Shown: positions 599 through 53,940, counted from the first letter of the stretch. The stretch: 64,000 nucleotides of DNA from an uncultured Candidatus Binatia bacterium (GCA_964404165.1 CAYOIZ010000007.1:86897-150896); one strand, 5' to 3'. The notes: generated by a model not told the origin, from the letters alone. Program-made: numbers and translations.

Positions 599-913
599 CT
601 AGCGGACGATCGCGCGCAGCAGCGCGATGAGTTCGCTGTCGGTATCTGCAGCGAGTGCCAGGAGCGCGTTGCCACGGGTGGTCTCGATCTTCCCGCGGAG
701 CATTCCCTGCTGCATGAGCCCCATGAATGACTGGATACGGCGATCGGCGCGACGCAGGTTCAGGTACGCCCGATTGCCGGTGCCGATCAGGCCGAGCTGC
801 GCCTTCTTGCGCGCGGCGGTCACGCGCTTCATGAGCGCCGTGTGGCGCTTCTTGCCGCCGAGATCGACGGGCGAAGTGGAGCGCACCAGATCGAGGAGGC
901 TGGTCAGGCGGCA
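599..913 (-). other. Conserved C-terminal basic alpha-helical tail domain (104 aa) of B
   Basis: CRLTSLLDLVRSTSPVDLGGKKRHTALMKRVTAARKKAQLGL... shares the C-[RQ]-[VL] junction and a K/R-rich helix with the tails of E, F and G. Confidence 0.5.
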
Positions 914-3900
914 GACGACGAAGTTCGGGACACGCTCGTAGGAGCAGCCGTCCGTCGCGTTGCAGGCTGCGTCGATCGTGCAGGCATCGCCATCATCGCA
1001 GGTGAGGGGCGTGCCCGCCTCGCAGACGCCCGTCTGCGGGTTGCAGGCCTCGGCGCCGTTGCACACGTTGGTGTCGCCGCAGGCGACCGTGCCGGTTCCG
1101 CCGCAGACGCCGGCGGTGCAGACGTCCCCGGTGGTGCAGGCGTTGCCGTCGTCACAGGCCTCGCCCGCCACGAGCATCTCGTGCAGGCAGCCCTCCGGCG
1201 TGCAGCTGTCGACCGTGCACGGATTGCCGTCGTCGCAGCTCTTGGTGGTGAAGTTGCAGCCCGTCACCGGATCGCAGACGTCGTCGGTGCACGGGTTGTT
1301 GTCGTCGCACACCACCGGCTCGCTGCTGCAGCCCGAGCCCGGGGTGCAGGTGTTGTCGGTGCAGGCGTTGCCGTCGTCACAGGCCAGCGGCGTGCCCGCG
1401 CGGCAGCCGTCCTCCGGGTCGCAGGTCTCGACGCCGGTGCAGTTGTTGCCGTCGTCGCACTGGACGAGGCCACCCGGGTTGCAGGTGCCATTGCTGCACG
1501 TGTCGCCGGTCGTGCAGGCGTTCTCGTCGTCGCACGGCGCCTGGTTGTAGGCCGCCACGCAGCCCACCGCCGGCGCGCACGAGTCGTCCGTGCACGGATC
1601 GTCGTCGTCGCACGACGGCGGCGTGCCGCCGGTGCAGGCGCCCGTGCCGGGGTTGCAGGTCTCGGTGCCGTTGCAGGCGTTGCCGTCGCCGCACACGGTG
1701 GGCGTGGCGACGCAGGCGCCGTTCGCGCAGACGTCGCCCGTGGTGCAGAGGTCGCCGTCGCTGCACGAGTTCGTATTGTTCACGTGCTGACACCCGATCG
1801 ACGGGTTGCAGCTGTCGTTCGTGCAGACGTTGCTGTCGTTGCAGTCGAGCGGCGTGGCGTCACATGCACCGGTCGACGGGTTGCAGGTCTCGGTGCCGTT
1901 GCACGCGTTGCCGTCCCCCTGGTTGCACTGCACCGCCGCCGGCGTGAGCGTGCCCTGGCAGCTGCCGCCGCCGCAGGTGTCGCCGGTGGTGCAGGCGCTG
2001 CCGTCGTCGCAGCTCTCGGTGTTGTTCATGAAGGTGCAGCCCGTCTGCGGGTTGCACATGTCGGTGGTGCAGACGTTGCCGTCGTTACAGGCCAGGTCCT
2101 CGCCCGCAACGCACTGCCCGTTGGCCGGATTGCAGGTCTCGACGCCGTTGCAGGCGTCGCCGTCCGTGCACTGGATCGGCGTGCCGACCTGACATCCGGT
2201 CTGCTGCGAGCAGGTCTCCTCGCCGTTGCAGGGGTTGCCGTCGTTGCAGGCCGTGCCCGCCTGGCAGCCGAGATCGGGGTCGCAGGTCTCGCTGCCATTG
2301 CAGACGTTGCCGTCGTCGCAGGTGAGCGGCGTGCCCGACTGGCAGAGCTTGTTCGCGCCGCAGACCTCGGCGCCGTTGCAGGCGTTGCCGTCGTCACAGT
2401 CCGCGGCCGTGTTGCAGCTGGCGCCGCAGGCGTTGGGCGCGCTCGGCGCCGCCTCGAAGTCGAAGCCGACGACGATGTCGCGCAGCCCGGGGACGTTCGG
2501 CACGTCGAGGATCGGCACCGTGCCGACCAGGTGGCTGCCCGCGAGGTCGCCGGCGCGGAGACGGTTGCAGTCGAACGCGACGCCGGTGTCGGGAATCTCG
2601 AGGTCGAGGCCGAGGACGTTGTCACGGTCGAGGATGCGGCCCGTGGCGGTGCCGGTCGTGAGCCAGAGCAGCGCCGGCATGTTCTGCACGGTCGAGTAGG
2701 TGTCGTTGCCGTTGCAGAAGACGCCGTCCGGACCGGCGTTCACCGAGAAGCTGAACGTCAGCGGCACCGACACGCGCGCGCCACCGGCGGCATAGCTGCC
2801 GGCGAAGCTCGTGTTGATCGGGCCGTTGCACACCGCATCGCTGTCGCCGAGATGCGGGCCCGGGAGCGACCCCTGGCAGGCGAGGTCGTTCTCGCGACAC
2901 CCGAGCGTGCAGCTCGGATCGCTGACGTCCGTGTTGTGGTCCTGCGAGATGGTGACGTCGCCACCAGCGGCGCCGCCATCGCAGTCGAGGGTGCCCTGCC
3001 CGTTTCCGGTGACGGCGAAGCAGATCGCCCCGAAGCCCGCCACAGGCACCGGCGGAAGCACGACGCGATCGGACGGGACCGTGATCGTGGCTTCGCCGTT
3101 GAAGCCGTTGGGGGCCCCGATGTCGAGGCCGACCGACCCGCCCGAGCTGACCGGCGTGGAGATCGTCTCGTCACGCGTCGTGATGCTGGTGTTGCTGACG
3201 GTGTTGGCGATGTCGAAGTTGCGCAGACCGATGACGCTGCTGCCGCTCGGCTCGATCGCATCCGGCGGCACCTGGCCGGGCCCCTGCGCGGGCACCCACG
3301 CCGAGTGCGGGTTGTCGAGGAAATTGTAGTTGATGGCGTAGATCTGGTAGCCGCACACGCCGTCGCCGGTGAGGTCGCTGCTGGTGGAAAGCGTCAGGAA
3401 CCACTGGCCGAGGTTGGCGCTGAGCGGGCCCTGGACGTCGCCGGCACCGGTGATCTGGTAGAGCAGACCGTCGCTGCTGTCGTAGACGAAGACGCGGTTG
3501 CCGGTGGTGTCGTTGTCGAGCGGGTCCCCCGTGCAGATCATCGGCACGCGGACCTCGAACACACCCTGCGCCGTCACCTTCGCGCCCGGGTTGAGCGTCG
3601 GGAAGCTGCAGTCACCGTAGATCGACGGCGGCGTGAGCTCGGTGAGCGTCGCGGAGGCCGTCGCCGGGGTGGTGACGTTCGCGAGCACGACGCGGCGCCC
3701 GGCGGTGCCGGTGCTGCCCGGGAGGTTGGTGGCGGTGCTGTCAAAGGTGACGACCGGCGAGTTCTCGGCGACGAACGCGTTGCGGCTCGGGCCGTTGCCG
3801 TTCGTGAGGCGATACAGCGTGCCGGTGTGGTTCACCTTGTCGTAGTCGACGTAGTAGATCTGCGAAACGCCGGTGTTATGGCCGTTGCCGAGCAGGTCCG

Positions 3901-4630
3901 ACGTCGACTCGAAGGCGATGCGCTTGCCGTCCTGGTTGGTGACCGGACGCGTACTGGCGCCGAGCGCCGCACCACCGGCGGCGACCGACAGGCGGCGGAT
4001 GATGCCGCCGGCGCGCTCGTACACGTAGACCTGCGACGCCCCCGACGGGTTCTGCAGGCCGCCGAGCAGGGTCGCCGTCGATTCGAAGACGATGACGCCG
4101 GCGAGAACGTTGACCGACGGACGGACGCTGTCGCCGTCGGTGCTCGAGGTGATGCGGCGGACCTCGTTGGTCCGCAGGTTCTTCACGAAGATCTGCCGGC
4201 GCGTCGCCCCGGCGCCGACGAGCGGCGACAGCGAGCCACCACCGGTGAACGATCCGAGCGCGTCGAACGCGATCCACTGATCGCTGTTGCCGCTGGCGAT
4301 GTCACCGATGCTCGGGTTGGCCGGCGCACCGGGACCCGAGGTGACCTGACGGATGTACGGAGTCGATGCGGGCGGGCACGGCGTGGTGTTCTCGGTAGTG
4401 CCCTGGGCGCAGTCGTAGTACGCGAGGTTGAATACGAAGATCTGGGGCGTCGTGTTGCCCGTCGCGGCAAGGTCCTGAGACGATGCGAAGGTGAAGAAGT
4501 TGCCCCAGGCCCGACCCGAGGGGTGGGCATGGGACACCCCGCTGCTGATTTGTACGGCACCGGGTGTTTCCCGATGCAGCGCCCAGGCAGGCCCTGCAAG
4601 CAGGAGCACCGCAAGGATCCACACGTTCAT
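599..4630 (-). CDS. Giant secreted protein B: signal peptide, PD40/TolB-like beta-propeller repeats, about 14 tandem 6-Cys repeats, conserved basic C-terminal tail
   Basis: The ORF is 599..4939; I re-set the start to the ATG at 4630 (MNVWILAVLLLAGPAWA, a signal peptide). The N-terminal half has repeated Q[IV][YF]V.[ND]L / GG..YVYER blades (PD40-like). Residues from about 735 onward are CDDGNACT.D.C.P..GC repeats. The last 104 aa form a Lys/Arg-rich helical tail. Confidence 0.85.
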   Translation of the reverse strand: MNVWILAVLLLAGPAWALHRETPGAVQISSGVSHAHPSGRAWGNFFTFASSQDLAATGNTTPQIFVFNLAYYDCAQGTTENTTPCPPASTPYIRQVTSGPGAPANPSIGDIASGNSDQWIAFDALGSFTGGGSLSPLVGAGATRRQIFVKNLRTNEVRRITSSTDGDSVRPSVNVLAGVIVFESTATLLGGLQNPSGASQVYVYERAGGIIRRLSVAAGGAALGASTRPVTNQDGKRIAFESTSDLLGNGHNTGVSQIYYVDYDKVNHTGTLYRLTNGNGPSRNAFVAENSPVVTFDSTATNLPGSTGTAGRRVVLANVTTPATASATLTELTPPSIYGDCSFPTLNPGAKVTAQGVFEVRVPMICTGDPLDNDTTGNRVFVYDSSDGLLYQITGAGDVQGPLSANLGQWFLTLSTSSDLTGDGVCGYQIYAINYNFLDNPHSAWVPAQGPGQVPPDAIEPSGSSVIGLRNFDIANTVSNTSITTRDETISTPVSSGGSVGLDIGAPNGFNGEATITVPSDRVVLPPVPVAGFGAICFAVTGNGQGTLDCDGGAAGGDVTISQDHNTDVSDPSCTLGCRENDLACQGSLPGPHLGDSDAVCNGPINTSFAGSYAAGGARVSVPLTFSFSVNAGPDGVFCNGNDTYSTVQNMPALLWLTTGTATGRILDRDNVLGLDLEIPDTGVAFDCNRLRAGDLAGSHLVGTVPILDVPNVPGLRDIVVGFDFEAAPSAPNACGASCNTAADCDDGNACNGAEVCGANKLCQSGTPLTCDDGNVCNGSETCDPDLGCQAGTACNDGNPCNGEETCSQQTGCQVGTPIQCTDGDACNGVETCNPANGQCVAGEDLACNDGNVCTTDMCNPQTGCTFMNNTESCDDGSACTTGDTCGGGSCQGTLTPAAVQCNQGDGNACNGTETCNPSTGACDATPLDCNDSNVCTNDSCNPSIGCQHVNNTNSCSDGDLCTTGDVCANGACVATPTVCGDGNACNGTETCNPGTGACTGGTPPSCDDDDPCTDDSCAPAVGCVAAYNQAPCDDENACTTGDTCSNGTCNPGGLVQCDDGNNCTGVETCDPEDGCRAGTPLACDDGNACTDNTCTPGSGCSSEPVVCDDNNPCTDDVCDPVTGCNFTTKSCDDGNPCTVDSCTPEGCLHEMLVAGEACDDGNACTTGDVCTAGVCGGTGTVACGDTNVCNGAEACNPQTGVCEAGTPLTCDDGDACTIDAACNATDGCSYERVPNFVVCRLTSLLDLVRSTSPVDLGGKKRHTALMKRVTAARKKAQLGLIGTGNRAYLNLRRADRRIQSFMGLMQQGMLRGKIETTRGNALLALAADTDSELIALLRAIVR
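914..2430 (-). repeat. Tandem array of about 14 class-A 6-Cys repeats (about 36 aa each; Myxococcus cysteine-rich-repeat-like) inside B
   Basis: Periodic ...C.DGN.C(N/T).(T/D).C.(P/A)..GC..G(T/A)P..C(D/N)DGN.C... in the translation. The nucleotide sequence is correspondingly repetitive (tgcaacga / gacggcaa motifs). Confidence 0.7.
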
Positions 4631-5129
4631 CCCAAGAATCACCGCCGCTTTCGAGCTCGCACGCATATGGGGGGCCATCGAGCAGAAAACGTGCCACGAA
4701 TCGACGCATCGTGCCATGGGATAAGGCGTTAAATTCCCGGAAAGATTCCTTCTGCCGTGGGGTTTTCCACAGGTCATGCTCTCCGACGAAGCGTTCAACC
4801 GACCCCTCACTTCCGCGCGATGCATGCACGATCGCAACGAACTGCCGGCGTCGCTACGCAGGTGCGCGAGCACCCGCCATGGCTTCTGCCACACCTGACG
4901 TCCACCGAGCATCGAACGGGTACAGTGGGGCTCAACCATCTTCGGAGAATACTACACGCTCCGACCGCCGGAATCCCCGATTTATCTAGGCTCCGCTCGA
5001 TGCCCGGGCCTCCGTCTCGGCGATGCACGCTGTCGCCCCTCGGCAGCGAGCGCCGCCGCGCAATGCATCGCTGCAGGGTCTGGGAGGTTTGCAGGCGGCG
5101 CGGCGCCTGCGCTAGAGCCCGGCCCCACC

Positions 5130-6344
5130 ATGCCCATGCTGCGCGATGCCGTCCTCGCCGCCTACGTTCGCACCCCGTTCGGTCGGGCCGACCCGCGCCG
5201 TGGCGTCTTCCGTGCGGTCCGCTCGGACGACCTCGCCATGGTCGTGCTGCACGAGGCGGTGCGACGCGCCGGCGTGGCTCCCACCGACGTCGACGGCATC
5301 ATCCTCGGCGCGGTCGAGATGATGGGGGAGCAGGCGCATCCCGGAACCGCGATCCCGTTCATGGCCGGCTTCCCGGAGCATGTCGTCGGGCTCAGCGTGG
5401 AGCGGGCCTGCACCACGGCGATGATGTCGGTGCACATCGCCACCATGCAGATCCAGTGCGGTCTGGGAGACGTCTACCTCGCTGGCGGGCTCGACAGCAT
5501 GACCCACTTTCGCATCCCGACCATCCGCGACGGCATGGACATGGACACGGTCATCAAGGAAGGCGGGCACATGCTCGCGTCCATGAACCCCAACCCCAAG
5601 CTCTTCGACATCATCAACCCGATCGAGCTGAACGGGGGCCAGGGCGCCGAACGCCTTGCGGATCAATACGGCATCACGCGCGAAGCCATGGACCGCTGGG
5701 CGCTCGCCAGCCACCAGCGCGCCCTTGCCGCCCGTGAACGCCTGCGCGAGGAGATCGTCCCGGTGGACGGCCTCGATCTCGAGGGCAACGCGGTCTCCGT
5801 GCTCGACGATCAGGGACCCCGCGCCGACACCACCTACGAGAAGATCGCGAGCCTCGCCCCGGTCTATCGCGACGACGGTCGCATCACCGCCGCCAGCTCC
5901 TCCGGCCAGGCCGACGGCGCCGCCGTCTGCCTCGTCATGGCCGCCGACGAGGCACGCCGCCGCGGCATCACGCCGCTCGCGCGCATCCATACCATCGCCG
6001 CCGGGGCCTGCGCCCCGACCGATCTGATCCGGTCGGCCATTCCCGCCACCCGCCGCGCCTTCGAGCGCAGCGGGCTCGGGCAGGCCGACATGACGGTGAT
6101 CGAGGTGAACGAGGCCTTCGCATCGGCGCCCATAGCGCTCATGCGCGAGTTCGGCATCGACGATGCGGCGCGCGTCAATCCGAACGGCGGCGCCTGCGCG
6201 CTCGGGCATCCCGTCGGCGCATCGGGTGCACGCCTCGTGGGAACGGCGGCGCTGGAGCTGCGGCGCCGCGGCGGACGCTATGCGCTCGCCACGATCTGTG
6301 GCGGCATGGGTCAGGGCGCGGCGACGATCCTCGAAGCGATGTGA
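5130..6344 (+). CDS. Acetyl-CoA C-acyltransferase (thiolase family)
   Basis: ATG at 5130. Thiolase N- and C-terminal signatures (YVRTPFGR..., SVERACTTAMMS, ...CGGMGQGAATILE). Confidence 0.85.
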   Translation: MPMLRDAVLAAYVRTPFGRADPRRGVFRAVRSDDLAMVVLHEAVRRAGVAPTDVDGIILGAVEMMGEQAHPGTAIPFMAGFPEHVVGLSVERACTTAMMSVHIATMQIQCGLGDVYLAGGLDSMTHFRIPTIRDGMDMDTVIKEGGHMLASMNPNPKLFDIINPIELNGGQGAERLADQYGITREAMDRWALASHQRALAARERLREEIVPVDGLDLEGNAVSVLDDQGPRADTTYEKIASLAPVYRDDGRITAASSSGQADGAAVCLVMAADEARRRGITPLARIHTIAAGACAPTDLIRSAIPATRRAFERSGLGQADMTVIEVNEAFASAPIALMREFGIDDAARVNPNGGACALGHPVGASGARLVGTAALELRRRGGRYALATICGGMGQGAATILEAM

Positions 6345-6350
6345 GGCCCC

Positions 6351-9227
6351 TCAGTGCGGCGCGAGACAACGCAACTTGAGGTTGTCCGTGTCCGGCGTCC
6401 CGGCGGCGTCGCGCGTGCGCAGCTGCAGCTTCGTCCACGACTTGCCGGTCGGCACGCTCAGCACCATGCGGCCGCTGCACACCTCGCCCGGCCCGGTGGC
6501 GACGAACGCGCCCACGCCCTGCAGCAGTGCCGCGCGGATCGCCGCGAGCGTGCCGGTGTCGCGTGCGCTCGGACGCCGGACCTCGAGCGACGCCACCTGC
6601 ACCGCGCCGCACCCGAGACGCGCATCGTCCGCGGCGACGCACGCCCACATGCCGAAGCCGCAGCGTCCCGGCGCCGGATCGCGGTCGCATCCCGGGTCCC
6701 CGTCGGTGCAGCTCTGCTTCGTCGACGGCAGGCCCTTGCCGTCGAGCGCCGGCGACGCCAGGTACAGGGCGGTCTCGAGCTGGCAGTCGGTGAGACGCGA
6801 GCCGCCGCCCGGGATGCGCACGGCGGGCACGACCTCGGTGCAGCCGGCAGTGCACGAGCTCTCCGGCGTACCGTTGGCAGCGCCGTCGTCGCACTGCTCG
6901 CCGCAGGTGACGACGCCGTCGCCACACGTCTCGGGACGGCAGGCCGCGTTGCAGCCGTCGCAGGCGGTGGTGTTGCCGTCGTCGCAGCCCTCGCCGATCT
7001 CCGTCGTGCCGTTGCCGCAGACCGCGGTGTTGGGGTCGCAGACGAGATCGACGCGGTTGCGCCGCATGCGGCCGCCGTCGATCTCCCGCGCCGCGATGAG
7101 CAGCGGCGTCGTCCCGGCGAGCCCGGGCGGATGCGGCACGCGCACCCCGACGGGAGCCGTGCACGAATCGCGCTGGGCGACGGGAGCCCCCGCGACCAGG
7201 ACGTTGGTGCCGGCGCGCACCGTCACGCCGGTGGCCGCGAGCGCCGCCACGAGCGCGGAGGCGTTGGCGACGTCGTGCGGTGCGGTCACGAGCAACGGGT
7301 TCGGCGCGTTCAACGACACCGATTCGATCGCCGCCGGCTGGCACGACGGCACGCGAACGTCGGTGGCGCCGAGACAGACGCCGACGTCGAACAGACACTG
7401 GCCGTCGCTCGCACCGTCCTGATCGCACGCCGGATCCCCGTCGATGCATCGCTGCGTGTGCGACGGCATGCCGTCGATCACCTCGCCACCGGGGTTCTGC
7501 ACCGTCCACTCGGCGTAGCACGCGTTGCGGCCGGTGCCGCCTGCGAGGCGCTGCACGCCACCGACGGCGGGGACGACGACGCAGTCCGCGTCGCAGGAGC
7601 TGCCCGGGGCCCCGTTCGCCGCGCCGACGTCACACTCCTCGTCGCACTCGACGCGCGCGTTGCCGCAGGTTTCCTGCCGGCAACTCGCGGCACAGCCGTC
7701 GCAGGCGACGTTGTTGCCGTCGTCGCACTCCTCGCCCGGCTCGGTCGTGCCATTGCCGCAGGCAGCACCGTCGGGCGCACACGGCGGCAACAGGGGATCG
7801 AGCACCGGCACCGCCACGGGGGCGAGCACGCCGCTCAGGATCGGCGGCTGCAGCGCGTCGCGGAAGCGGATGGCGTTCACGCCCCCGACCGACGTCGTCA
7901 TCCGTCCCGCCACCGTGATGCGACCGCCGCCGAGGATCTCGTTGAGGCCGTTGGGCCCGAGCGTGCGCAGCTCGCCCGTGGCCCCGACGGTGATGCGGCA
8001 GCCGCTCACGCTGATCGTGCCGGCGAGACCCGTCGAGGCGCCGTTGGCGCGGATCACGGCACTGGCGACGACGTCCCGCCCCTGCAGCGTCACGAAGCCG
8101 CCGGTGCCGAACTGCGTGGCGCCGTCGGCCGTGATCAGGCCGGCCGCCGTCAGCGTGCCGAGCCCCTGCGCCCAGAGTGTGCCGCCCCCGCACGAGCCGC
8201 CGCCGAGATCGATGCGATCGAGACGGACGTCCCGCCCGGCCTGGACGTCGACCGACCCCCCGCAGCCGTCGATGCCGTTGCCGGTGGCGATGATCGCGGC
8301 CGTCTGCGTGATGTTCGTGCCCGCCTCGAGCGTCACCGATCCGCCCTCGCCGTCGGGGAGCGCGCCCGTGATCGTCATCACGGCGCCGAGGGTGATGGCC
8401 TGCTGCGCGCGGATGTCGATGTCGGCCCCGCTGCCGCCGCCCTCGTCGGGATCGCCGACGCCCGGGCCGTTGATGACGCCGAGCACCGAGACGGATCCGC
8501 CGGCGTCGAGCAGGACGTACCCGCCGTAGCCCGAGATGCCGCCACCGGGCACGTCGAGCTTCTGCCGCGTGACGACGTCGACGGCGGCGTCGAGCTCGAT
8601 CGAGCCGCCGCCGAAGTCGCCGCCGGCCGCGGTGAGCACCTGCGCCGCGTCGATGCTGCCGCCGGCGTGCATCGCAATGACGCCCCCATCGGCTTGCGAG
8701 CCGCCCTTCGCCTCGATGAAGCCGGTGACGGCGATGCTGCCGCCCGCCGTGACGTCCACGAGCCCGCCGCTGCCCTCCTGTCCCGATCCGTTGGTGACGA
8801 TGTCCCCGTCGATGCCGACGTCGCCCGCGGCGACGAGCATGACGGTGCCGGCGGCGAGCGCCGCCGAGACGTCCACGCGCGCCCGCGCACTGCCGGCGAC
8901 CTCGACGGTGATCGCACCGGCGGAGCGGAGGGTCAGGCTCGGTCCGAAGTCGCCACCGGTGCCGAGGACGCGCGCGCCGGGCAGCAGACGCACCGGACCT
9001 GCGTCGATCGTCACGGCCCCCGACAGGACCAGCCGGCCCTGGGCGCCCAGGTGCAGCGCCCGGGTCCCGAGATCGATGGCCGACCCCGGCGTGAGCGTCA
9101 CAACGGTGTTGACGACGCACGGATCGGCGAGCGACGTGCAGAGCTCGTCGGCGACCGTCGCCCGTGCGAGCGGCACGCACCCGAGGAGACATGCGGCGAC
9201 CGACAACCACGACCTGACGACATGCAT
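6351..9227 (-). CDS. Giant secreted protein C: signal peptide, Gly-rich parallel beta-helix, two duplicated class-B Cys-repeat modules; no basic tail
   Basis: MHVVRSWLSVAACLLGCVPLARA signal peptide. The N-terminal 50 aa are about 50% identical to the N-terminus of F. GG.GG.I.I.A...I repeats are typical of a right-handed beta-helix. From residue about 490 there are two copies of CGNGTTE.GE.CDDGN..ACDGC.A.CR.ETCG..., each followed by a TQ(R/S)C.DGDP.CD.D Cys-rich unit. Confidence 0.8.
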   Translation of the reverse strand: MHVVRSWLSVAACLLGCVPLARATVADELCTSLADPCVVNTVVTLTPGSAIDLGTRALHLGAQGRLVLSGAVTIDAGPVRLLPGARVLGTGGDFGPSLTLRSAGAITVEVAGSARARVDVSAALAAGTVMLVAAGDVGIDGDIVTNGSGQEGSGGLVDVTAGGSIAVTGFIEAKGGSQADGGVIAMHAGGSIDAAQVLTAAGGDFGGGSIELDAAVDVVTRQKLDVPGGGISGYGGYVLLDAGGSVSVLGVINGPGVGDPDEGGGSGADIDIRAQQAITLGAVMTITGALPDGEGGSVTLEAGTNITQTAAIIATGNGIDGCGGSVDVQAGRDVRLDRIDLGGGSCGGGTLWAQGLGTLTAAGLITADGATQFGTGGFVTLQGRDVVASAVIRANGASTGLAGTISVSGCRITVGATGELRTLGPNGLNEILGGGRITVAGRMTTSVGGVNAIRFRDALQPPILSGVLAPVAVPVLDPLLPPCAPDGAACGNGTTEPGEECDDGNNVACDGCAASCRQETCGNARVECDEECDVGAANGAPGSSCDADCVVVPAVGGVQRLAGGTGRNACYAEWTVQNPGGEVIDGMPSHTQRCIDGDPACDQDGASDGQCLFDVGVCLGATDVRVPSCQPAAIESVSLNAPNPLLVTAPHDVANASALVAALAATGVTVRAGTNVLVAGAPVAQRDSCTAPVGVRVPHPPGLAGTTPLLIAAREIDGGRMRRNRVDLVCDPNTAVCGNGTTEIGEGCDDGNTTACDGCNAACRPETCGDGVVTCGEQCDDGAANGTPESSCTAGCTEVVPAVRIPGGGSRLTDCQLETALYLASPALDGKGLPSTKQSCTDGDPGCDRDPAPGRCGFGMWACVAADDARLGCGAVQVASLEVRRPSARDTGTLAAIRAALLQGVGAFVATGPGEVCSGRMVLSVPTGKSWTKLQLRTRDAAGTPDTDNLKLRCLAPH
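6460..7760 (-). repeat. Duplicated class-B Cys-rich modules (CGNGxxExGExCDDGN...DGCxxxC) of protein C
   Basis: Two modules of about 200 aa that align with each other in the translation; consistent with the Myxococcus cysteine-rich repeat (TIGR02232-like). The family assignment is from memory, not a search. Confidence 0.55.
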
Positions 9228-12174: not shown

Positions 12175-12546
12175 TCAGGACTTGGGCTGACAGTCGAGCA
12201 CGGGATTGCCGACGCTGTTCCACGTGCAGGTCTTGGTGGACGCGGGATGGTCGGTGGTCAGGCGGTACGAGACGCCGTCGCTCTCGCACTCGGTGAAGAC
12301 CACGCCCTCGGAGGGCGTGAAGCCAGGCAGCGCGCTGCAGTCGTCGGAGTACTCCAGGTGGTCCAGGAAGAACGCCTCCTGCCCCGCTGCAGCGTTGCGC
12401 ACGTCGGTCACGATGCGCGCGTCGTATCCCTTCCCCTGTCGTGCCGCGAAGTTCGGGATGGCGATGGCGGCAAGGATGCCGATCACCGACATGACGACCA
12501 TCAGCTCGACCAGGGTGAATCCCCGATTGCGTGCCCGCGTGTCCAT
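12175..12546 (-). CDS. Type IV pilin / pseudopilin with an N-terminal methylation motif
   Basis: RGFTLVELMVVMSVIGILAAIAIPNF, with Gly at -1 and Glu at +5. Four Cys in the C-terminal region suggest disulfide loops. Confidence 0.85.
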   Translation of the reverse strand: MDTRARNRGFTLVELMVVMSVIGILAAIAIPNFAARQGKGYDARIVTDVRNAAAGQEAFFLDHLEYSDDCSALPGFTPSEGVVFTECESDGVSYRLTTDHPASTKTCTWNSVGNPVLDCQPKS

Positions 12547-12718: not shown

Positions 12719-13423
12719 ATGCCCGACGCCGCTCACCGCGCCGGCACCCGTCTCCCGCGCGTGCCATCCCTCCTCTTCGCCTGCGTCCTCCTGTTGAACG
12801 CGCTGCCCGCACCGGCGTCCGCCGCCCGTTGCGGCGACGACGTCGACGGTCGCGGCACCCGCGTGGGCTGCGCCTGCGGGGATGTCGTCGTGAGCTCCGT
12901 GCGGCTCGATGCCGCCGACCCCATCGTGCAGGCGCCCTGTCCGGCGGCGGGCCTCGTCGTCGACGTGCCGTCGTCGGTTGCGCTGCCGACGCTCGACCTC
13001 GGCGGCCTCACGCTCGCCGGCAGCGGACGCGGCATCGGCATCGACGTCCTCTCGGGCGGACGGGCCGGGCTCGCGCTCGTCGGTCCCGGCACCGTGCGTG
13101 GATTCGACCATGGCGTCGCAGCCCGCGAAGGCACACTGGCGCAGGCGTCGTCGGTGCGCGCCGACGGCAACGCCCGCGACGGCTTCCGACTGGCCGGACG
13201 CGGGTACCATCTCGTCGCCTGCAGCGCCGAGCACAATGGACGCGACGGCTTCGTGCTGCAGGGCCAGGACTACCGGCTCGACGACTGCACCGCGGTCGCC
13301 AACGGGCGCGACGGCTTCGCCGTCCGCGGCCGCCCTGCGGCCCCGGTCGACGCCGCCAACGCCGCCACCGACAACGGTCGCCGCGGCGCCCGCACGCGCA
13401 GCCGCGCCGCGAGGTCGCGATGA
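12719..13423 (+). CDS. Small secreted parallel beta-helix repeat protein D, translationally coupled to giant protein E
   Basis: Signal peptide LLFACVLLLNALPAPASAA. Repeated ...NARDGFRLAG / HNGRDGFVLQG / ANGRDGFAVRG (PbH1-like). Arg-rich C-terminus. Stop TGA at 13421..13423 overlaps the ATG of E at 13420. The overlapping N-terminal extension of ORF 12661.. is in another frame and is Arg-rich junk. Confidence 0.65.
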   Translation: MPDAAHRAGTRLPRVPSLLFACVLLLNALPAPASAARCGDDVDGRGTRVGCACGDVVVSSVRLDAADPIVQAPCPAAGLVVDVPSSVALPTLDLGGLTLAGSGRGIGIDVLSGGRAGLALVGPGTVRGFDHGVAAREGTLAQASSVRADGNARDGFRLAGRGYHLVACSAEHNGRDGFVLQGQDYRLDDCTAVANGRDGFAVRGRPAAPVDAANAATDNGRRGARTRSRAARSR

Positions 13424-16400
13424 TCCGCGCACTCGCGGGCGCCCTCGTCGCCATCGGGCTGCTCCTCGGCACCGCGGGCGGGTCCAGCGCCGCCAACTGC
13501 ACCAAAGGACCCGTGTGCGGTGCGAAGCCGTTCACCGACGACGCCTCCTGCTGCTTCGGCCTCTACTGCCAGCTCGACGGCGACGTGCAGCTGTCGGGTC
13601 CCGATTGCGTGCTCGATTTCGGCAACCGTGACGTCACGATCTCCGGCAAGGTCCAGCTCGGCACCAAGCGTCTCAAGATCCGCGCCAAGAGCCTCGTCAT
13701 CGCGAATGGGGTGGATGGTCGCGGTGCCGCGGGATCACGCGGCGGCACGCTCGAGATCGAGACCTTCGTCGGCACGGCGCTCGACTTCCGCCTGCTCACG
13801 AACGCCGCCAAGATCGACCTCTCCGGCGGCATCGGAGGCGGCGTGTTCGCCATCGCGGCACAGGGTGGCATCTCGCTCGAACAGGGCGAGATCCGCGCCG
13901 ACGGTCTCACCGCAGCGGCGCCCGGTGGCAGCATCGATCTGCGGAGCGAGACCGGCAACATCCACGTCGGGACGGTCCTGGCGGCGGACGACGGCACCCT
14001 CACCGGCGGTGGCTCGTCCCGCATCGGCCTGCAGGCAGTCGCCGGCGGGATCACGCTGAACGGCGCGAACCTCAGCGCCTCCGCCGGCAGCATCGACATC
14101 GCAGCGCGCGACACCGTGTCGAGCGACCAGGGGGCGAAGCTCCGCACCGACCGCGGCGGCGCGATCGACATCGTCGGCAGCGCCCTGACGCTGGCGGGCG
14201 AAGCCACCGCGACCTGGGGCAGCATCAACCTGCACGCCACGACCGGCGCCCTCGCCGTCACGCGGACGAGCCAGCCCGGCCTCCGCGTCGACGCGAGCAG
14301 CGACGGCGACACCGGCGAGATCGCGCTCATGGCCGATGCGCCCGGTCCGGCCGGCACCATCACCATCGCGACGCCCATCGTCGCGCCCGGCGCCGACGTC
14401 GAGGCCCACGCCACCGGGCTCCTCCGCGTCACGAAGAAGCTCAACGCCAGCGGCACGCCCGCCGACGGGGAGACCACGGGCGGTGGCCAGGTCGTGCTCG
14501 AGAGCGAGCTCCTCGACATCGAGATCACCGACGACGTCCTCGCCAACGACAACCTGACCGAGGGCAGCGTCGATCTGAGCGCCGGACACGACGTCATCCT
14601 GAACGGCGGCGTCGAGGCCAAGGGCACCATGGGCGGGCCGGGCGGCGCCGTCACCATCAGCGCCGGCCGCGACATGCGCCTCGGCGCGGGACGCACCATC
14701 GACGCGTCCGGTGGCGAATCGGGCGGCAGCGTCGAGGTGCGCGCGGGCGGACGCATCGAGCTGGTCGGAACGAGCAAGATCGACGCCGGCACCGGCGCCC
14801 CCGGCCCGGGCGGCCTCATCGATCTCGCCGCCGGCGCCGACGGTGAGGCGGGCGCGCTCGCCATCGCCGGCAGCGTCGTCGCCAAGACCAAGGACGCTGG
14901 CAACGCGCCGAGCACGATCCTGCTCGAGGGCTGCGACATCACGATCGCGGCGGCGGGCACCGTCGACAGCAATCGCCTCGGCAGCAACGGCGCCCACGGC
15001 AGCAACAGCCTCACCGCCCGCAAGAGCGTCACCGTCGCCGGCAAGATCCTCGGTGGCGGCGGCAACTTCCTCACGTCGGTATCGGCGGCGTCTGGCGGCG
15101 GCCAGGTCGCGCCCGCGTTCACGCTCTCGCTCCGCCCCGCCTGCACCGACAATGGCGTGCCGGCGGGATGCCTGCTCCCCTGCCCCACCTGCGGCGACGG
15201 CGTGGAACAGTTCCCCGAAACCTGCGACGGCGGCGCCGCCGATCGCTGCACGAGCAAGTGCGGCCCAACCTGCCGAGACGACCTGGTCTGCGATGCGGCG
15301 CTCGCCTGCGCGGGCATCGCCTGCGACACGGTCGGCGGCTGCTACTTCGGCCCTGTCCCCCAGGGGACGACGTGCAACGACGGCAACGCCTGCACCGCGA
15401 ACGACGTCTGCAGCAGCGGCGCGTGCCACGGCCCGGACGTGGTCGTCTGCGACGACGGCAATGCGTGCAACGGCGTCGAGACGTGCCCGAGCGCCGCCGG
15501 CTGCCAGGCCGGCACGCCGCCCAACTGCGACGACGGCAATCCCTGCACCACCGACAGCTGCGCGCCCGCGGCGGGCTGCCAGCACACGCCCAACGCGGCT
15601 CCCTGTGACGACGGCGATGCCTGCACCGAGAACGACGCCTGCGGCGACAGCGCCTGCCAGGCCGGGAGCGCACGCACGTGTCCGGCCGGGGAGATCTGCG
15701 TCGCACCGACCGGGTGCGAGACGGCGCCGGCGTGCAACGAGGCCGCGGATTGCGACGACGACAACGCCTGCAACGGTGTCGAGACGTGTGTGAACGACGC
15801 CTGCGTGGCGGGAACGCCCCTCACCTGCAACGACGGCAACGTCTGCAACGGTACCGAGACGTGCGATCCCGCGACCGGCTGCAAGGCGGGAATCGCCTGC
15901 GACGACGGCAACCCCTGCAACGGCACCGAGACCTGCTCGCAGGAGACCGGCTGCCACGCCGGAACGCCTCCCAGCTGCGCCGACACCGACGTCTGCACCA
16001 CCGACAGCTGCAACCCGCTCTCGGGATGCGTCAACACCCCCGTCGGAGGCGACTGCTGCAACCTCGCGTCCGACTGTGCCGATGACGGCGACGTCTGCAC
16101 CGACGCCACCTGCGTCGCCCATGCGTGCGTCTTCGAGACCAGCGCGCTCTGCTGTCAGAACCCGGCCGATTGCGCGGACGGCAACCCCTGCACCACGGAC
16201 GACGTCTGCAACGTCGCCAATCGCTGCGAGCACGCGCTCCTCGAGGGCACGCAGCCGGGGTGCGGTGACGCCTGCGCGCCGGGAAGCTGCGCCGACGGCA
16301 TCTGTGTCGCGGGCGAGCCCACGGTCTGCGACGACGGCGAGGTGTGCACCGCGGACACCTGCGCGCCGAGCACGGGATGCGTCTTCACCGGCGTCGTGGG

Positions 16401-17136
16401 CTGCTGCGAGACGAACGCCGGATGCGACGACGGCGCGCCCTGCACCGTCGACACGTGCGACACCGACACCCACACCTGCAGCCACGTCGTCGACGAGCTG
16501 TGCAGCGAGTGCGTCACCGACAGCGACTGCGATCCGCTCGGCACCTGTGGCGGCATGGCATGCCAGAGCGGCGTCTGCGTCTCGACGCCGCCCCTCGACT
16601 GCGACGACGCCAACCAGTGCACCGTCGACACCTGTCCCGACGCGCGCGGCTGCGTGCACACCATCCGCTCCTGCGACGACGGACGCGCCTGCAACGGCGC
16701 CGAGTCCTGCAGCCCACTCGACGGCTGCCGCGCGGGCACGGTCCCCGACTGCGACGACGGCGACCGCTGCACCGACGACACGTGCAGCGAGCCGACCGGG
16801 TGCACCCACGTCCAGCGCACGGGCTTCCCGGGCGTCGTCTGTCAGCTCGACACCGTGTCGGCGTTCCTCGATGGTGCGAGCACCGACGAGCTCACGGCGA
16901 AGCTCAAGCGCAAGCTCGGCAAGCTCCTCACCAAGGTGCGGGCCACCCTGCGCAAGGCCGAGTCCACCGGCAGCGCCCGCAAGCGGGCCAAGCTCGCCGG
17001 CAAGGCAGCCAACCAGCTACGTGGCCTCTCACGCGCCATCGACAAGGGGCGCGATCGCGGCATCGCCGGCGATCTGGCCGACGTCCTGCGCCGGGCCGTC
17101 GACGGCGCAGCCACGACCGCGGGCACCCTGCGCTGA
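13420..17136 (+). CDS. Giant secreted protein E: signal peptide, long Gly-rich beta-helical (hemagglutinin/autotransporter-passenger-like) region, about 15 class-A Cys repeats, basic C-terminal tail
   Basis: Start ATG at 13420 (MIRALAGALVAIGLLLGTAGGSSA). About 580 aa of G..I.L....I.A repeats. Cys repeats run from about 15181. The last 98 aa are KLKRKLGKLLTKVRATLRKAE... Confidence 0.85.
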   Translation: MIRALAGALVAIGLLLGTAGGSSAANCTKGPVCGAKPFTDDASCCFGLYCQLDGDVQLSGPDCVLDFGNRDVTISGKVQLGTKRLKIRAKSLVIANGVDGRGAAGSRGGTLEIETFVGTALDFRLLTNAAKIDLSGGIGGGVFAIAAQGGISLEQGEIRADGLTAAAPGGSIDLRSETGNIHVGTVLAADDGTLTGGGSSRIGLQAVAGGITLNGANLSASAGSIDIAARDTVSSDQGAKLRTDRGGAIDIVGSALTLAGEATATWGSINLHATTGALAVTRTSQPGLRVDASSDGDTGEIALMADAPGPAGTITIATPIVAPGADVEAHATGLLRVTKKLNASGTPADGETTGGGQVVLESELLDIEITDDVLANDNLTEGSVDLSAGHDVILNGGVEAKGTMGGPGGAVTISAGRDMRLGAGRTIDASGGESGGSVEVRAGGRIELVGTSKIDAGTGAPGPGGLIDLAAGADGEAGALAIAGSVVAKTKDAGNAPSTILLEGCDITIAAAGTVDSNRLGSNGAHGSNSLTARKSVTVAGKILGGGGNFLTSVSAASGGGQVAPAFTLSLRPACTDNGVPAGCLLPCPTCGDGVEQFPETCDGGAADRCTSKCGPTCRDDLVCDAALACAGIACDTVGGCYFGPVPQGTTCNDGNACTANDVCSSGACHGPDVVVCDDGNACNGVETCPSAAGCQAGTPPNCDDGNPCTTDSCAPAAGCQHTPNAAPCDDGDACTENDACGDSACQAGSARTCPAGEICVAPTGCETAPACNEAADCDDDNACNGVETCVNDACVAGTPLTCNDGNVCNGTETCDPATGCKAGIACDDGNPCNGTETCSQETGCHAGTPPSCADTDVCTTDSCNPLSGCVNTPVGGDCCNLASDCADDGDVCTDATCVAHACVFETSALCCQNPADCADGNPCTTDDVCNVANRCEHALLEGTQPGCGDACAPGSCADGICVAGEPTVCDDGEVCTADTCAPSTGCVFTGVVGCCETNAGCDDGAPCTVDTCDTDTHTCSHVVDELCSECVTDSDCDPLGTCGGMACQSGVCVSTPPLDCDDANQCTVDTCPDARGCVHTIRSCDDGRACNGAESCSPLDGCRAGTVPDCDDGDRCTDDTCSEPTGCTHVQRTGFPGVVCQLDTVSAFLDGASTDELTAKLKRKLGKLLTKVRATLRKAESTGSARKRAKLAGKAANQLRGLSRAIDKGRDRGIAGDLADVLRRAVDGAATTAGTLR
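15181..16839 (+). repeat. Tandem class-A 6-Cys repeat array of E
   Basis: CDDGNACNGVETC..AAGCQAGTPPNCDDGNPCTTDSCAPAAGCQHTP... recurs about 15 times. Confidence 0.7.
16840..17136 (+). other. Conserved C-terminal basic alpha-helical tail domain (98 aa) of E
   Basis: CQLDTVSAFLDGASTDELTAKLKRKLGKLLTKVRATLRKAESTGSARKRAKLAGKAANQLRGL... Confidence 0.5.
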
Positions 17137-17302
17137 AGTACTGCCTGGGCGATTCGGTCGCGCGATCGCGCCCGAGCCGTGCAGCCGTGCAATCCATGTG
17201 ACGCGCCATGGCACGACCCGGAGCCCTTACGCTGCAAGGCTGCAGGGCTCGAGCCGCGAGCGGCCTGACCGGGCACGAGGGTTGCTCAAGCCAACCCGCA
17301 CG

Positions 17303-19948
17303 ATGAGACTCCCCGTCCGCCTGGTCCTCGGATTCCTGGCCTGTCTCCCCGCCGTGGCCCATGCCACGACGGCCGACGACCTGTGTCTGCCCGCTGCCGA
17401 TCCCTGCATCGTCTCGAACAGGCAGATCACCGTCACCGACGGCTCGATCATCGACCTGGGCGCGCGGACCCTGATCCTGCGCTCCGGCTCGGCCCTGACG
17501 GTGGCGCCGGGTCCGCTGGCGGGCGGGACCATGACCCTCAAGGCGGGCAACGTCACCCTCGAGGGCGGCACGGCGCTCAAGGGGAGCGGCGCCGACATCA
17601 ACGTCGACGTCACCGGGACCATCCAGGTCCTCAAGACGAACAGCCTGGCCCGGATCGACGTCGCCGGCACCTCGCCCGGCAACATCGAGCTCGACGCCGA
17701 TGGCGACATCCTCATCCAGGGCATCCTCGACGCCGGTTCGGGCGCGGTGTCGTCCGACGGCGGCGTCGTCCTCGTCCACGGCATGAACCTGTCGGTGCCG
17801 GGAACCGTCGACGTCCACGGCGGCAAGGACGCGACGGGCGGCGTCATCGAGCTCGACGCCCTCGGCTCCATCAACGTCTCCGGCAACGTCGACGCCACGG
17901 GCGGCGACGGCGGCGACGTCGAGATCGACGCGTTCGGCGAGCTCGTCACTACCGGCAAGCTCGATCTGAAGGCGACGCTCGGTGGCGGCTTCGGCGGCAC
18001 CCTCGTCCTCGGCACCTCGAACGGCCGCCTCGCGCTGGGCGGCACCATCGACATGCAGGGCGAGGCCGGCGGCGACGGCGGCGGCGACGGCGGCGACCTC
18101 GACGTGTTCGCGGGCGAGTCGCTCGAGATCACCGCCACGATCGACCTGCGCGGCGCCTCTCCCGACGGCAGCGGCGGTGGAGCGGCGTTCTCCGCCGATG
18201 TGGACATCATCCAGACGGCGCCCATCCTCGCCCAGGGCCAGGGTCAGGAGAGCGCCGGCGGCAGCGTGGAGTTCAGCGCCGAGCGCAAGGTCGTGCTCGG
18301 CTCCGTCAACGCGTTCGGCGGCGGACAGGGATTCGGCGGCACGGTCGTCGCCACCGCATGGTGCGATCTCCAGCTGCCTGCCGGCAAGGCGATCAACGCC
18401 ACCGCGCTCGGTGGGGACACCACGCTCCGATCCGGCGGCGCCATGACCATCGACGGCACGGTGACGGCCGGCACCGCCAACCGCATCTACCACCGCACCG
18501 GCGAGACGCCGGTGTTGAACCTCGCCGGCATCCTGCCCGCACCCAGCGTCACCCCCGACGACAACCTGATCCCCTGTGGCGGCCTCCCCACGCCGGGCTG
18601 CGGCAACAACATCGTCGAGGCCGGCCTCGGCGAGCAGTGCGACGACAACAACACCGACTCCTGCGACGGCTGCTCGTCGATGTGCAAGAATGAGGTCTGC
18701 GGCAACGGGGTCACCGAGTGTCTCGAGGTGTGCGACGACGGCAACACCGCGAGCGGCGACGGCTGCCAGAACGACTGCCTGCGGGTCGAGAACATCTGCG
18801 GCGACGGCATCACGGATGCCGCCGAGACCTGCGACGACAGCAACACCGACGCCTGCGACGGCTGCTCGGCAACCTGCCAGACCGAGGCGTGCAACAACGG
18901 CGTCGTCGAGTGCGCCGAGGAGTGCGACGACGGCCAGCCCGGCGTCGGCTTCTGCGACGACTCGTGCCAGATCGTTCCGCCGCCGAACTGCGGCGACGGC
19001 GTGGTCGATCAGGCCGAGGGCGAGCAGTGCGACGACGACAACACGACCGACTGCGACGGCTGCTCGAGCCTCTGCCAGACCGAGGGCTGCGGCAACGGCC
19101 GCGTCGAGTGCCTCGAGTCGTGCGACGACTTCAACACCGCGTCGTGCGACGGCTGCTCGCCGACCTGCGGTGTCGAGGAGTGCGGCAACGGCGTCCTCGA
19201 CTGCTTCGAGACCTGCGACGACGCCGGCCCGGGCAGCCTCTGTCTGCCGGGTGTCTGCGAGCAGGGCGAGTTCTGCACGTCCGAGACGGCCGCCGAGCAG
19301 CCGTGCATCGCCTGCGCCAGCGACCTCGACTGCGACCCGATGGGCGCCTGCGGCCCGAGCACGTGCGTCGACAACCCCGACAAGGGCCGCAAGGAGTGCA
19401 CGCCCACCGACGCCCCGTCGTGCGACGACGGCAACGCCTGCACGGTGGACGCGTGCGACGCCGCCACCGGCTGCGTCACCACGCCGCGCATCTGCGACGA
19501 CGGCCAGGCCTGCAACGGCTCGGAGACGTGTGACCCCACCGCCGGCTGCGTCAGCATGGCGCTGACGTGCGACGACGGCGACGTCTGCAGCGACGACAGC
19601 TGTGACGATGCCACCGGCTGCAGCTACACGCTGCGCTCCGGCCTGGCGCTGGTGAGCTGCCGCGTCGAGGAGATCAACGCCATCGTCACCGCCGCCGGCA
19701 CCGATCTCGCCACTCCCGCGCGCAAGAAGCTCACCAAAGCGATCAAGAGCATTCGCGCGAAGGTCGCGGCCGCCGGGTCCACGAAGACGAAGAAGGCGAG
19801 CCGTGCCGTGAAGGCCGCCAGCAAGCAGCTCCCGAAGCTCGGGACCCTCGTCACCAAGCTCGGCGCGCAGATCCCGGCACCGATCGCCTCCGACCTCACG
19901 CAGGCCATCGGCAGCGCCACCCAGGCCATCGCGCTGGTTCCGCGCTGA
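17303..19948 (+). CDS. Giant secreted protein F: signal peptide, beta-helix with N-terminus homologous to C, class-B then class-A Cys repeats, basic C-terminal tail
   Basis: Start ATG at 17303 (MRLPVRLVLGFLACLPAVAHA). The upstream part of ORF 16076.. is out-of-frame read-through of the 3' end of E. ATTADDLCLPAADPCIVSNRQITVTDGSIIDLGARTLILRSG matches the N-terminus of C. Class-B CGNNIVEAGLGEQCDDNNTDSCDGCSSMC... repeats come first, then CDDGNACTVDACDAATGC repeats, then the tail CRVEEINAIV...KKLTKAIKSIRAKVAAAG... Confidence 0.85.
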   Translation: MRLPVRLVLGFLACLPAVAHATTADDLCLPAADPCIVSNRQITVTDGSIIDLGARTLILRSGSALTVAPGPLAGGTMTLKAGNVTLEGGTALKGSGADINVDVTGTIQVLKTNSLARIDVAGTSPGNIELDADGDILIQGILDAGSGAVSSDGGVVLVHGMNLSVPGTVDVHGGKDATGGVIELDALGSINVSGNVDATGGDGGDVEIDAFGELVTTGKLDLKATLGGGFGGTLVLGTSNGRLALGGTIDMQGEAGGDGGGDGGDLDVFAGESLEITATIDLRGASPDGSGGGAAFSADVDIIQTAPILAQGQGQESAGGSVEFSAERKVVLGSVNAFGGGQGFGGTVVATAWCDLQLPAGKAINATALGGDTTLRSGGAMTIDGTVTAGTANRIYHRTGETPVLNLAGILPAPSVTPDDNLIPCGGLPTPGCGNNIVEAGLGEQCDDNNTDSCDGCSSMCKNEVCGNGVTECLEVCDDGNTASGDGCQNDCLRVENICGDGITDAAETCDDSNTDACDGCSATCQTEACNNGVVECAEECDDGQPGVGFCDDSCQIVPPPNCGDGVVDQAEGEQCDDDNTTDCDGCSSLCQTEGCGNGRVECLESCDDFNTASCDGCSPTCGVEECGNGVLDCFETCDDAGPGSLCLPGVCEQGEFCTSETAAEQPCIACASDLDCDPMGACGPSTCVDNPDKGRKECTPTDAPSCDDGNACTVDACDAATGCVTTPRICDDGQACNGSETCDPTAGCVSMALTCDDGDVCSDDSCDDATGCSYTLRSGLALVSCRVEEINAIVTAAGTDLATPARKKLTKAIKSIRAKVAAAGSTKTKKASRAVKAASKQLPKLGTLVTKLGAQIPAPIASDLTQAIGSATQAIALVPR
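18585..19657 (+). repeat. Mixed class-B and class-A Cys-repeat region of F
   Basis: See F. This is the only protein in the window that carries both repeat classes. Confidence 0.65.
19658..19948 (+). other. Conserved C-terminal basic alpha-helical tail domain (96 aa) of F
   Basis: CRVEEINAIVTAAGTDLATPARKKLTKAIKSIRAKVAAAGSTKTKKASRAVKAASKQL... The histone-H1-like KAAK pattern is evident. Confidence 0.5.
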
Positions 19949-38973: not shown

Positions 38974-39013
38974 CCCTTGCGATGCGAGGCCTCGGCTTGG
39001 TACGCGGCGCCGC

Positions 39014-53880: not shown

Positions 53881-53895
53881 GCTCCTCATCGGACC

Positions 53896-53940
53896 AACCC
53901 CAGCCCTCCAGCAGGCGCCGTCGCTTCTGGGGCTGGGGTT
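53896..53940. terminator. Inverted repeat (11-bp stems AACCCCAGCCC / GGGCTGGGGTT, 23-nt loop) just downstream of the RRM gene; a putative terminator hairpin with no U-tract
   Basis: Read directly: 53896..53906 and 53930..53940 are perfect reverse complements. Confidence 0.4.

Follow-up and report, generated by a model that had tools for sequence, protein, structure and literature searches.

What kind of proteins are encoded by a group of large, cysteine-rich genes in an uncultured Candidatus Binatia bacterium from soil, and are these genes being reshuffled or are they old and stably arranged? The question is raised by a stretch of 64,000 nucleotides (GCA_964404165.1 CAYOIZ010000007.1:86897-150896; hereafter the window) from a metagenome-assembled genome (MAG), and in particular by positions 12719-19948, which had been predicted to belong to a multigene family of giant secreted proteins. 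This family proved to be real: five complete members (B, C, E, F and G) and one partial member (A) share N-terminal heads, Cys-repeat stalks and a basic C-terminal tail in different combinations. On balance, we lean towards reading them as secreted, adhesin-like modular proteins of the cell surface or matrix, held there by the tail in B, E, F and G, and as an old family typical of the Candidatus Binatia lineage.

The GC content of the window is ~71%, and raw lists of open reading frames (ORFs) are full of spurious frames at this composition. Real genes were therefore picked by their third-position GC content (GC3) and then translated. The resulting proteins C, D, E, F and G are exact matches to independently called proteins. 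The genes concerned are the following:

A, 1..374, minus strand: first 124 codons of a B-type paralog whose remainder lies beyond the window edge; signal peptide and start of a propeller-like head, as read from the translation.
B, 599..4669, minus strand: 1356 amino acids; signal peptide; head of ~715 amino acids (2435..4579); ~19 Dicty-type 4-Cys repeats (938..2434); basic tail (602..937).
C, 6351..9227, minus strand: 958 amino acids; signal peptide; type-1 beta-helix head (7773..9158); twice the combination of two DUF4215 repeats and a Cys-containing module of ~190 amino acids; no tail.
D, 12719..13423, plus strand: 234 amino acids; small PbH1-like parallel-beta-helix protein with its own signal peptide, predicted to be secreted; no Cys repeats and no tail.
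E, 13420..17136, plus strand: 1238 amino acids; signal peptide (13420..13497); type-1 beta-helix head (13498..15159); Dicty-type Cys repeats (15160..16815); tail (16816..17133).
F, 17303..19948, plus strand: 881 amino acids; signal peptide; type-1 beta-helix head (17366..18577); seven DUF4215 units (18599..19282); Dicty-type hairpins (19283..19636); tail (19637..19945).
G, 59985..63155, minus strand: 1056 amino acids; signal peptide; head of ~710 amino acids (60951..63080) containing a PF13229 right-handed beta-helix; Dicty-type repeats (60306..60950); tail (59988..60305).

As anticipated by the original prediction, a signal-peptide-like N terminus was read from the sequence of every member. 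The family occupies ~17.6 kb, which corresponds to 27% of the window instead of the ~40% first estimated. Three genes (D, E and F) lie within positions 12719-19948; the assignment of this span to the family holds for E and F, and position 12719 is the start of the separate gene D.

Three kinds of head were distinguished: the type-1 head of C, E and F, the PbH1 beta-helix of G, and the head of A and B with its faint propeller-like similarity. Profiles of the N-terminal modules were built from their orthologs and compared by hhalign, using reversed sequences, in which composition and periodicity are kept, as controls. The heads of F and C aligned with E=7e-94, those of E and F with E=2e-37 and those of E and C with E=7e-41 (scores of 290-699), compared to E values of 1e-8 to 2e-11 and scores of 74-93 for the reversed heads. 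Since the true alignments are far above the controls, C, E and F share one head family, and a six-frame census of the window revealed exactly three type-1 heads. The N-terminal module had been described as variable, which does not hold for C, E and F. Similarly, the identity of about 50% proposed for the N termini of C and F applies to the first 70 residues alone (51%) and drops to 38-39% over the entire head (BLASTP, 38% over 336 residues). The proposed relationship between the N termini of A and B was recovered with 37-39% identity over ~105 residues (BLASTP, 37% over 103).

A structural model of F was computed with AlphaFold2 (AF2) from 52 orthologs (mean predicted local distance difference test score, pLDDT, 87.9). 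Residues 25-420 of this model form a three-stranded right-handed beta-helix of ~14 coils, which is followed by seven DUF4215 units, Dicty-type hairpins and the helical tail. According to the model, the type-1 head adopts the predicted fold of the N-terminal domains of two-partner-secretion (TPS) adhesins such as HMW1, EtpA and FHA, and it directly follows the signal peptide, a position also seen in TpsA proteins. Comparison of the F model with the PDB by Foldseek gave nothing significant. In the heads of C, E and F, neither a TPS/Haemagg_act match in Pfam nor a PF13229 match was obtained, and they contain no NPNL, NPNG, NPN- or NxNG-type motif. A Fil_haemagg match was seen in the head of E alone (E=0.013, 16.6 bits), below the cut-off of 21.5 bits. 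The head of G matches PF13229 Beta_helix with 33.4 bits (cut-off 25.9), and G is the only one of these proteins above this cut-off. The B/A head remained below threshold against both TolB (17.9 bits, E=0.0012, cut-off 343) and PD40 (14.4 bits, E=0.039, cut-off 20.9). Sequence relatives of the F, B and G heads were not found in the PDB, and no catalytic-family hidden Markov model (HMM) matched any head.

The stalks are composed of two classes of known repeats. Dicty_CTDC (PF00526, gathering threshold 27 bits) matches B (77.4 bits), E (70.3), F (34.5) and G (51.1) but not C. DUF4215 (PF13948, cut-off 27 bits) matches C (37.4 bits) and F (56.3), as does the cysteine-rich acidic repeat TIGR02232 (cut-off 20.8; C 54 and F 95.6 bits), and neither of the two matches B, E or G. 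Both classes occur together in F alone, as had been noticed before. The repeat units had been described as carrying six Cys; we found 4 Cys per 24-27 amino acids in the Dicty-type unit and 5-6 Cys per 31-34 amino acids in the DUF4215-type unit. In an all-versus-all BLASTP comparison, B, E, F and G matched each other several times in their repeats and tails. The stalks carry 55-91 cysteines and are very acidic, with an isoelectric point (pI) of ~4.1; the stalk of E has 91 acidic and 11 basic residues. Dicty-type units appear as simple beta-hairpins in the F model.

In Dictyostelium, CTDC repeats build secreted structural matrix proteins. In B, E, F and G this 4-Cys, 24-residue repeat exceeds the gathering score, which would, by analogy, fit a stalk or matrix role here. 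The hosts in the present case are however bacterial and the flanking domains differ, and the likeness of the repeats is no proof of a common function or direct descent. DUF4215/TIGR02232 proteins, which are abundant in Myxococcota, are likewise modular secreted proteins with varied N-terminal domains, and the repeats of C and F are bona fide members of this class. By contrast, B, E and G lack this repeat, and the basic tail is absent from the ~76 DUF4215 loci of Myxococcota and other phyla that were sampled. The module of ~190 amino acids in C occurs twice, once after each DUF4215 pair (~6354..7772, minus strand; C residues ~541-730 and 800-958). It is characterized by the motif CxDGDPxCDxD..GxCxF..WxC ... 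LKLxC, has no Pfam or NCBIfam match, is kept in ~20 C-type proteins and represents another undescribed domain. The repeat families are known, whereas type-1 head, tail and C-type module are present in neither Pfam nor NCBIfam.

Exactly four tails, those of B, E, F and G, were detected by the six-frame census, which is the number expected from the original prediction. An HMM built without window sequences scored 89 bits with F, 76 with E, 44 with G and 33 with B, as opposed to at most 6 bits with reversed sequences, and did not match C, D or the A fragment. The tail comprises ~105-120 residues with a C-x12-C loop followed by an up-down, basic four-helix bundle, and its pI of 10.9-11.7 contrasts with that of the bodies (4.1-5.3). 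AF2 modelling of the E tail alone (pLDDT 96; predicted template modelling score, pTM, 0.85) resulted in four helices, and the same four helices are present in the full-length F model. A comparison of 222 tails showed 99% conservation of the first Cys, which precedes Arg-Leu, and regular hydrophobic core positions. Lys or Arg is found in at least 65% of the tails at ten positions, all of which are located on helices 2-3, while helices 1 and 4 are neutral to slightly acidic. A second Cys is present ~13 residues upstream in most tails; in one protein this pair represents the only cysteines. The total number of Cys in E, F and G is even only if the tail Cys is counted. From the upstream Cys in most tails and the even totals we infer a local C-x12-C disulfide staple.

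With a profile of 35 tail sequences, 988 of 1.84e9 cluster representatives (clusters at 50% identity) were retrieved at E<=1e-3, 155 of them at E<=1e-10. A word-indexed search with the tail alignment returned 5 proteins, far below the exhaustive profile search. The tail ends at most 12 residues from the C terminus in 213 of 221 domains (median 2 residues), and a signal peptide was flagged by a crude rule in 81 of 116 full-length tail proteins. The long tail hosts (n=54) contain Dicty_CTDC (37), DUF4215 (13), Beta_helix (3), NosD (2) or a DUF5122 propeller (1). Thr-rich linkers connect some tails to Cys-poor bodies. Four small secreted proteins (P0143, P0195, P0207 and P0224; 260-400 amino acids) contain a tandem double tail and have no Cys repeats.

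Searches with the full proteins and 35 tails gave no Pfam or NCBIfam match for the tail apart from a faint Pfam match to FIMAH in 3 of the 35 tails (best E 0.046), and no sequence relatives of the tail were found in the PDB. HMMs of known C-terminal sorting signals (T9SS CTD, PEP-CTERM, MYXO-CTERM, LPXTG) and of the autotransporter C-terminal beta-barrel did not match; the C terminus lacks a hydrophobic terminal helix and is predicted to be a soluble helical bundle, modelled with four helices. We conclude that the tail is a real domain that is described in no database. Its modelled fold offers no specific lead. The closest known systems include Avd and 23S-rRNA-intervening-sequence four-helix-bundle proteins, plant PMEI/invertase inhibitors, and the S-layer homology (SLH) domains and lipopolysaccharide (LPS)-binding regions of S-layer proteins. 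SLH domains are helical and bind anionic wall polymers. The tail resembles them in being terminal, autonomous, sometimes duplicated and attached to many different passengers. It differs in that it has no sequence match to SLH or to any Pfam or NCBIfam anchoring or sorting domain, and its anchoring role is a prediction.

With respect to taxonomic range, F falls into the same 90% cluster as HEV7733099.1 from Candidatus Binatia. Most labelled members are assigned to Candidatus Binatia or bear the older name "Deltaproteobacteria bacterium", and a few MAGs have other labels (Eisenbacteria, Limnocylindria or 'bacterium'). The sample of 83 loci included the ~76 DUF4215 loci mentioned above, an 8-sequence alignment having retrieved mostly generic DUF4215 loci; among these 83 loci, the tail HMM matched in Binatia-type loci only, which suggests that the tail is lineage-restricted. 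In public databases the relatives are annotated as "DUF4215 domain-containing", "cysteine-rich repeat protein" or "hypothetical". A literature search on DUF4215, Dicty_CTDC and Cys-rich Binatia proteins returned nothing relevant, and none of the words cysteine, adhesin, secretion system, pili, S-layer and extracellular occurs in the main genome survey of Binatia.

Orthologs were compared with regard to architecture, gene order and divergence, and every paralog type was found to have counterparts of identical architecture. More than 50 F-type orthologs have 35-70% identity at 95-100% coverage. At least 11 E-type orthologs (~1090-1360 amino acids) have the same N-terminal cap and head-stalk junction, and ~20 C-type orthologs have the same C-terminal module. 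The 3-4 B-type orthologs with the same layout include P0095, P0105 and P0106. The G-type ortholog P0255 has a head that is 50% identical and a locus that is partly syntenic. Three loci (L003, L084 and L086) share with the window the gene order C, ChsH2-like, thiolase, DUF218, Grx, BolA, pilin-like, D, E, F and amidohydrolase onwards. In the nearest relative (L086), amino acid identity to the window is 87% for C, 87% for D, 82% for E and 90% for F, compared to 88-98% for the flanking genes; in the middle one (L003) these values are 71, 62, 67 and 67%, compared to 76-95%; and in the most distant one (L084) they are about 40, 52, 42 and 46%, compared to 59-86%. The C-D-E-F order and colinearity hold down to 42-46% identity, and divergence is even across head, stalk and tail, with no hypervariable module. 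The rate of evolution of the family is roughly two to three times that of the neighbouring genes, yet colinearity is retained.

The content of some positions does differ between lineages. In four genomes the slot between the pilin-like and amidohydrolase genes is occupied by D, E and F; in L085 it contains F alone; and in L002, where E and F are absent and the amidohydrolase gene follows directly, it encodes a single protein of 306 amino acids (P0155; 2765..3685). In P0155, a head of the D type (44% identity to D) is linked through half a Cys repeat to a tail with 37% identity to that of E. It is the only tail-bearing protein among 120 D-like proteins and is hence regarded as a derived fusion, which probably arose by in-frame deletion. 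In L085, the C slot (1874..6124, minus strand) holds a frame of ~1416 codons ending in a tail; the gene caller annotated a product of 507 amino acids with a weak Dicty_CTDC match. L088 contains two tandem B-type genes, both tailed, which mirror the B-A pair of the window: the first is 53% identical to the B head, and the second (P0106) is 41% identical to the B head and 35-36% to A. This tandem pair supports A as a full member of the family. Between paralogs of the window, no DNA is at least 90% identical. The best match is 79% over 280 bp between E (15722..15997) and B (2149..2426), covering 3.5 Cys repeats; here, protein identity is 70% compared to ~40% elsewhere. This value is higher than that between B and its distant orthologs (55%) and lower than that between E and its L003 ortholog (76%), which suggests an old segmental exchange or shared constraint. 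Taken together, the comparisons indicate that the paralogs arose by ancient duplication and module recombination, now reside in conserved slots, and are occasionally lost, replaced or fused. The genes are thus of old origin and stable arrangement, with module dynamics that are real but slow.

The stop codon of D and the start codon of E share the sequence ATGA at 13420-13423. The same overlap of 4 nucleotides is seen in the called coordinates of L003 (6113..6116), L084 (6103..6106) and L086 (6115..6118), which suggests that translation of the small PbH1-like D is coupled to that of the giant E. The Beta_helix (PF13229) score of D is 15.6 bits, below the cut-off of 25.9. The possibility that D is a degraded family member or a frameshifted start of E was rejected, as D has its own signal peptide, and its length (234-238 amino acids) and the ATGA overlap are kept in three other genomes.

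Two further neighbours keep their place. The divergent upstream neighbour of D encodes a prepilin-type protein of 123 amino acids (12175..12546, minus strand) with the N-terminal sequence GFTLVELMVV, whose orthologs match PF07963 N_methyl; it is present at the same position in L002, L003, L084, L085 and L086, even where the D/E/F content differs. A link of this neighbour to a type IV pilus or to type II secretion is possible. At a distance of 12 kb downstream of F, a TamA-like gene (Omp85 plus POTRA, PF01103+PF07244; 31904..33733, plus strand) is followed by a TamB-like gene (~33750..37434, plus strand). TamA and TamB are found 1-12 kb downstream in every syntenic locus: in L085 they directly follow the amidohydrolase gene that adjoins F, and in L084 the distance to TamA is 7 kb. 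Among the annotated ORFs of the window, Omp85 genes are of the PF01103+PF07244 type only, adjoining the TamB-like gene. An ORF at 33019..37434 was considered as a family member and rejected; it is TamB-like, adjoins the Omp85/POTRA gene, and TamB is located at the same place in the syntenic loci.

Several explanations of this family were weighed against each other. That the similarities are compositional artefacts of Gly/Cys/Lys-rich low complexity can draw on the reversed Gly-rich heads, which still align at E 1e-8 to 1e-11 and indicate that composition and periodicity inflate the head scores. The explanation is already refuted by the same controls and has practically no probability left, because the true alignments score far higher, the independent tail HMM separates real (33-89 bits) from reversed sequences, Cys, hydrophobic core and basic positions are conserved in 222 tails, and the AF2 models are confident; the homologies thus survive the profile-profile test. 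The original prediction also envisaged a rapidly diversifying contingency family of surface proteins or polymorphic effectors, built by ongoing domain shuffling with strain-level presence/absence and recombination. Modules do recur in different combinations, the family genes diverge faster than flanking genes at all three distances, slot content varies between lineages up to the fusion of D-type head and tail in L002, and E and B share the 280-bp block. Shared modules among paralogs alone, however, do not indicate ongoing shuffling. Relatives at 90%, 67% and 46% identity have the gene order, lengths and architectures of the window, divergence is uniform along the proteins, and inter-paralog DNA never reaches 90% identity, so that faster evolution and slot rearrangement are supported but recent or rapid shuffling is not. 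As to effectors, the hallmarks of polymorphic toxins (Rhs, CDI) were not found: no toxin domain was detected, the genes downstream are F, the amidohydrolase gene or another family member rather than an immunity-like gene, and no mobile-element gene is present among the annotated ORFs. In addition, the C-terminal domain, instead of being polymorphic, is the most widely shared module, conserved and common to four paralogs and 988 clusters. We therefore consider the contingency-family explanation improbable. Equally improbable is that the proteins are secreted carbohydrate-active enzymes (beta-helix lyases, hydrolases or epimerases) with the Cys repeats as linkers and the tail as substrate- or cell-binding domain. 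G and D-like proteins match parallel beta-helices of the PF13229/NosD type, but catalytic-family HMMs match no head, and the tested F, B and G heads have no sequence relative in the PDB.

The main rival explanation concerns the export route. C, E and F might be TpsA-like exoproteins whose head, as a genuine secretion domain, is recognised by an Omp85-family transporter, possibly TamA/TamB, while the folded, stapled tail would serve as a periplasmic stopper and so tether the adhesin to the cell. A comparable tether is known from HMW1, whose C terminus is disulfide-bonded. The location of the head straight after the signal peptide, the faint Fil_haemagg match of E, the conservation of an Omp85/POTRA gene and a TamB-like gene nearby and the probable disulfide loop at the start of the tail are in line with this explanation. 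In contrast to TpsA adhesins (HMW1, EtpA, FHA, HxuA), however, no TPS Pfam match or NPNL/NPNG-type motif was found in any head, and no ShlB/FhaC-type TpsB gene is present among the annotated window ORFs or in L003, L084, L085, L086 and L088. The Omp85 gene is paired with TamB and so resembles a housekeeping TamA; its proximity to genes for TPS-fold heads may be coincidental synteny. Furthermore, the passengers are Cys-rich and end in a four-helix bundle, B and G carry the tail on non-TPS heads, and stalks with 55-91 knotted cysteines would have to cross a narrow pore unfolded and become oxidised outside. TpsA passengers are not known to behave in this way. As the TPS hallmarks and a TpsB gene are missing and such a stalk is an implausible passenger, this route is rated below that of tail-anchored surface or matrix proteins and is considered unlikely, though less so than shuffling or enzymatic activity.

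In the favoured reading of tail-anchored, adhesin-like proteins, the disulfide-rich polypeptide would be exported by a Sec-type route and then fold oxidatively. The head would bind a substrate or surface, the stalk would act as a rigid spacer between head and cell, and the cationic face formed by Lys and Arg of helices 2-3 of the tail would hold the protein on an anionic component of the surface or matrix. Candidate ligands of the tail are LPS, acidic exopolysaccharide and the acidic stalks of neighbouring molecules. The strict confinement of the tail to the C terminus is in line with a role in anchoring or retention, and tandem tails, as seen in some proteins, are more in keeping with a binding module than with a signal that is cleaved off. 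Several points weigh against this reading. No route across the outer membrane was identified, and the similarity of the heads to secretion domains could instead indicate Omp85-type export. Oligomerisation, or binding of lipid, nucleic acid or a partner protein, would be an equally plausible function of a basic helical domain. Anchoring cannot be universal, since C and the D-like proteins have no tail. Finally, the view that the tail is restricted to one lineage is based on a limited sample and on MAG labels that do not all agree.

The remaining neighbours of the family are ordinary genes of metabolism and the envelope, coding for thiolases, CoA-transferases, an amidohydrolase, a short-chain dehydrogenase, acyl-CoA dehydrogenases, citrate synthase, TamA/TamB and an RND pump. 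At ~52900..53362 (plus strand), downstream of a GST gene, there is an ORF that clearly encodes an RRM_1 RNA-recognition motif (E 4.6e-14); its listed start overlaps the GST gene, and its true start is probably later. Four long ORFs have no Pfam match: 58008..59189 (minus strand), 38828..39880 (minus strand), 53886..55397 (minus strand) and 53947..55107 (plus strand). The first of these has coding-like GC3 and lies just downstream of G, and the other three may be spurious frames.

Binatia are globally distributed and uncultured, and they devote large, conserved genes to heads of predicted TPS fold, eukaryote-like Cys-rich stalks and a widespread, undescribed tail. More speculatively, the tail may be a new, Binatia-typical surface-retention module of diderms, which would either dock passengers on an anionic envelope polymer or act as a periplasmic stopper together with TPS-fold heads exported by an Omp85/TAM-type machine without a classical TpsB; we regard this as possible but doubtful. 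If true, either mechanism would be a previously unrecognised route of surface display in an uncultured phylum. Definition of the tail as a domain would improve the annotation of thousands of proteins now called "hypothetical" or "DUF4215", and as a small, confidently modelled domain it would provide a handle on how Binatia attach proteins to their surface or matrix.

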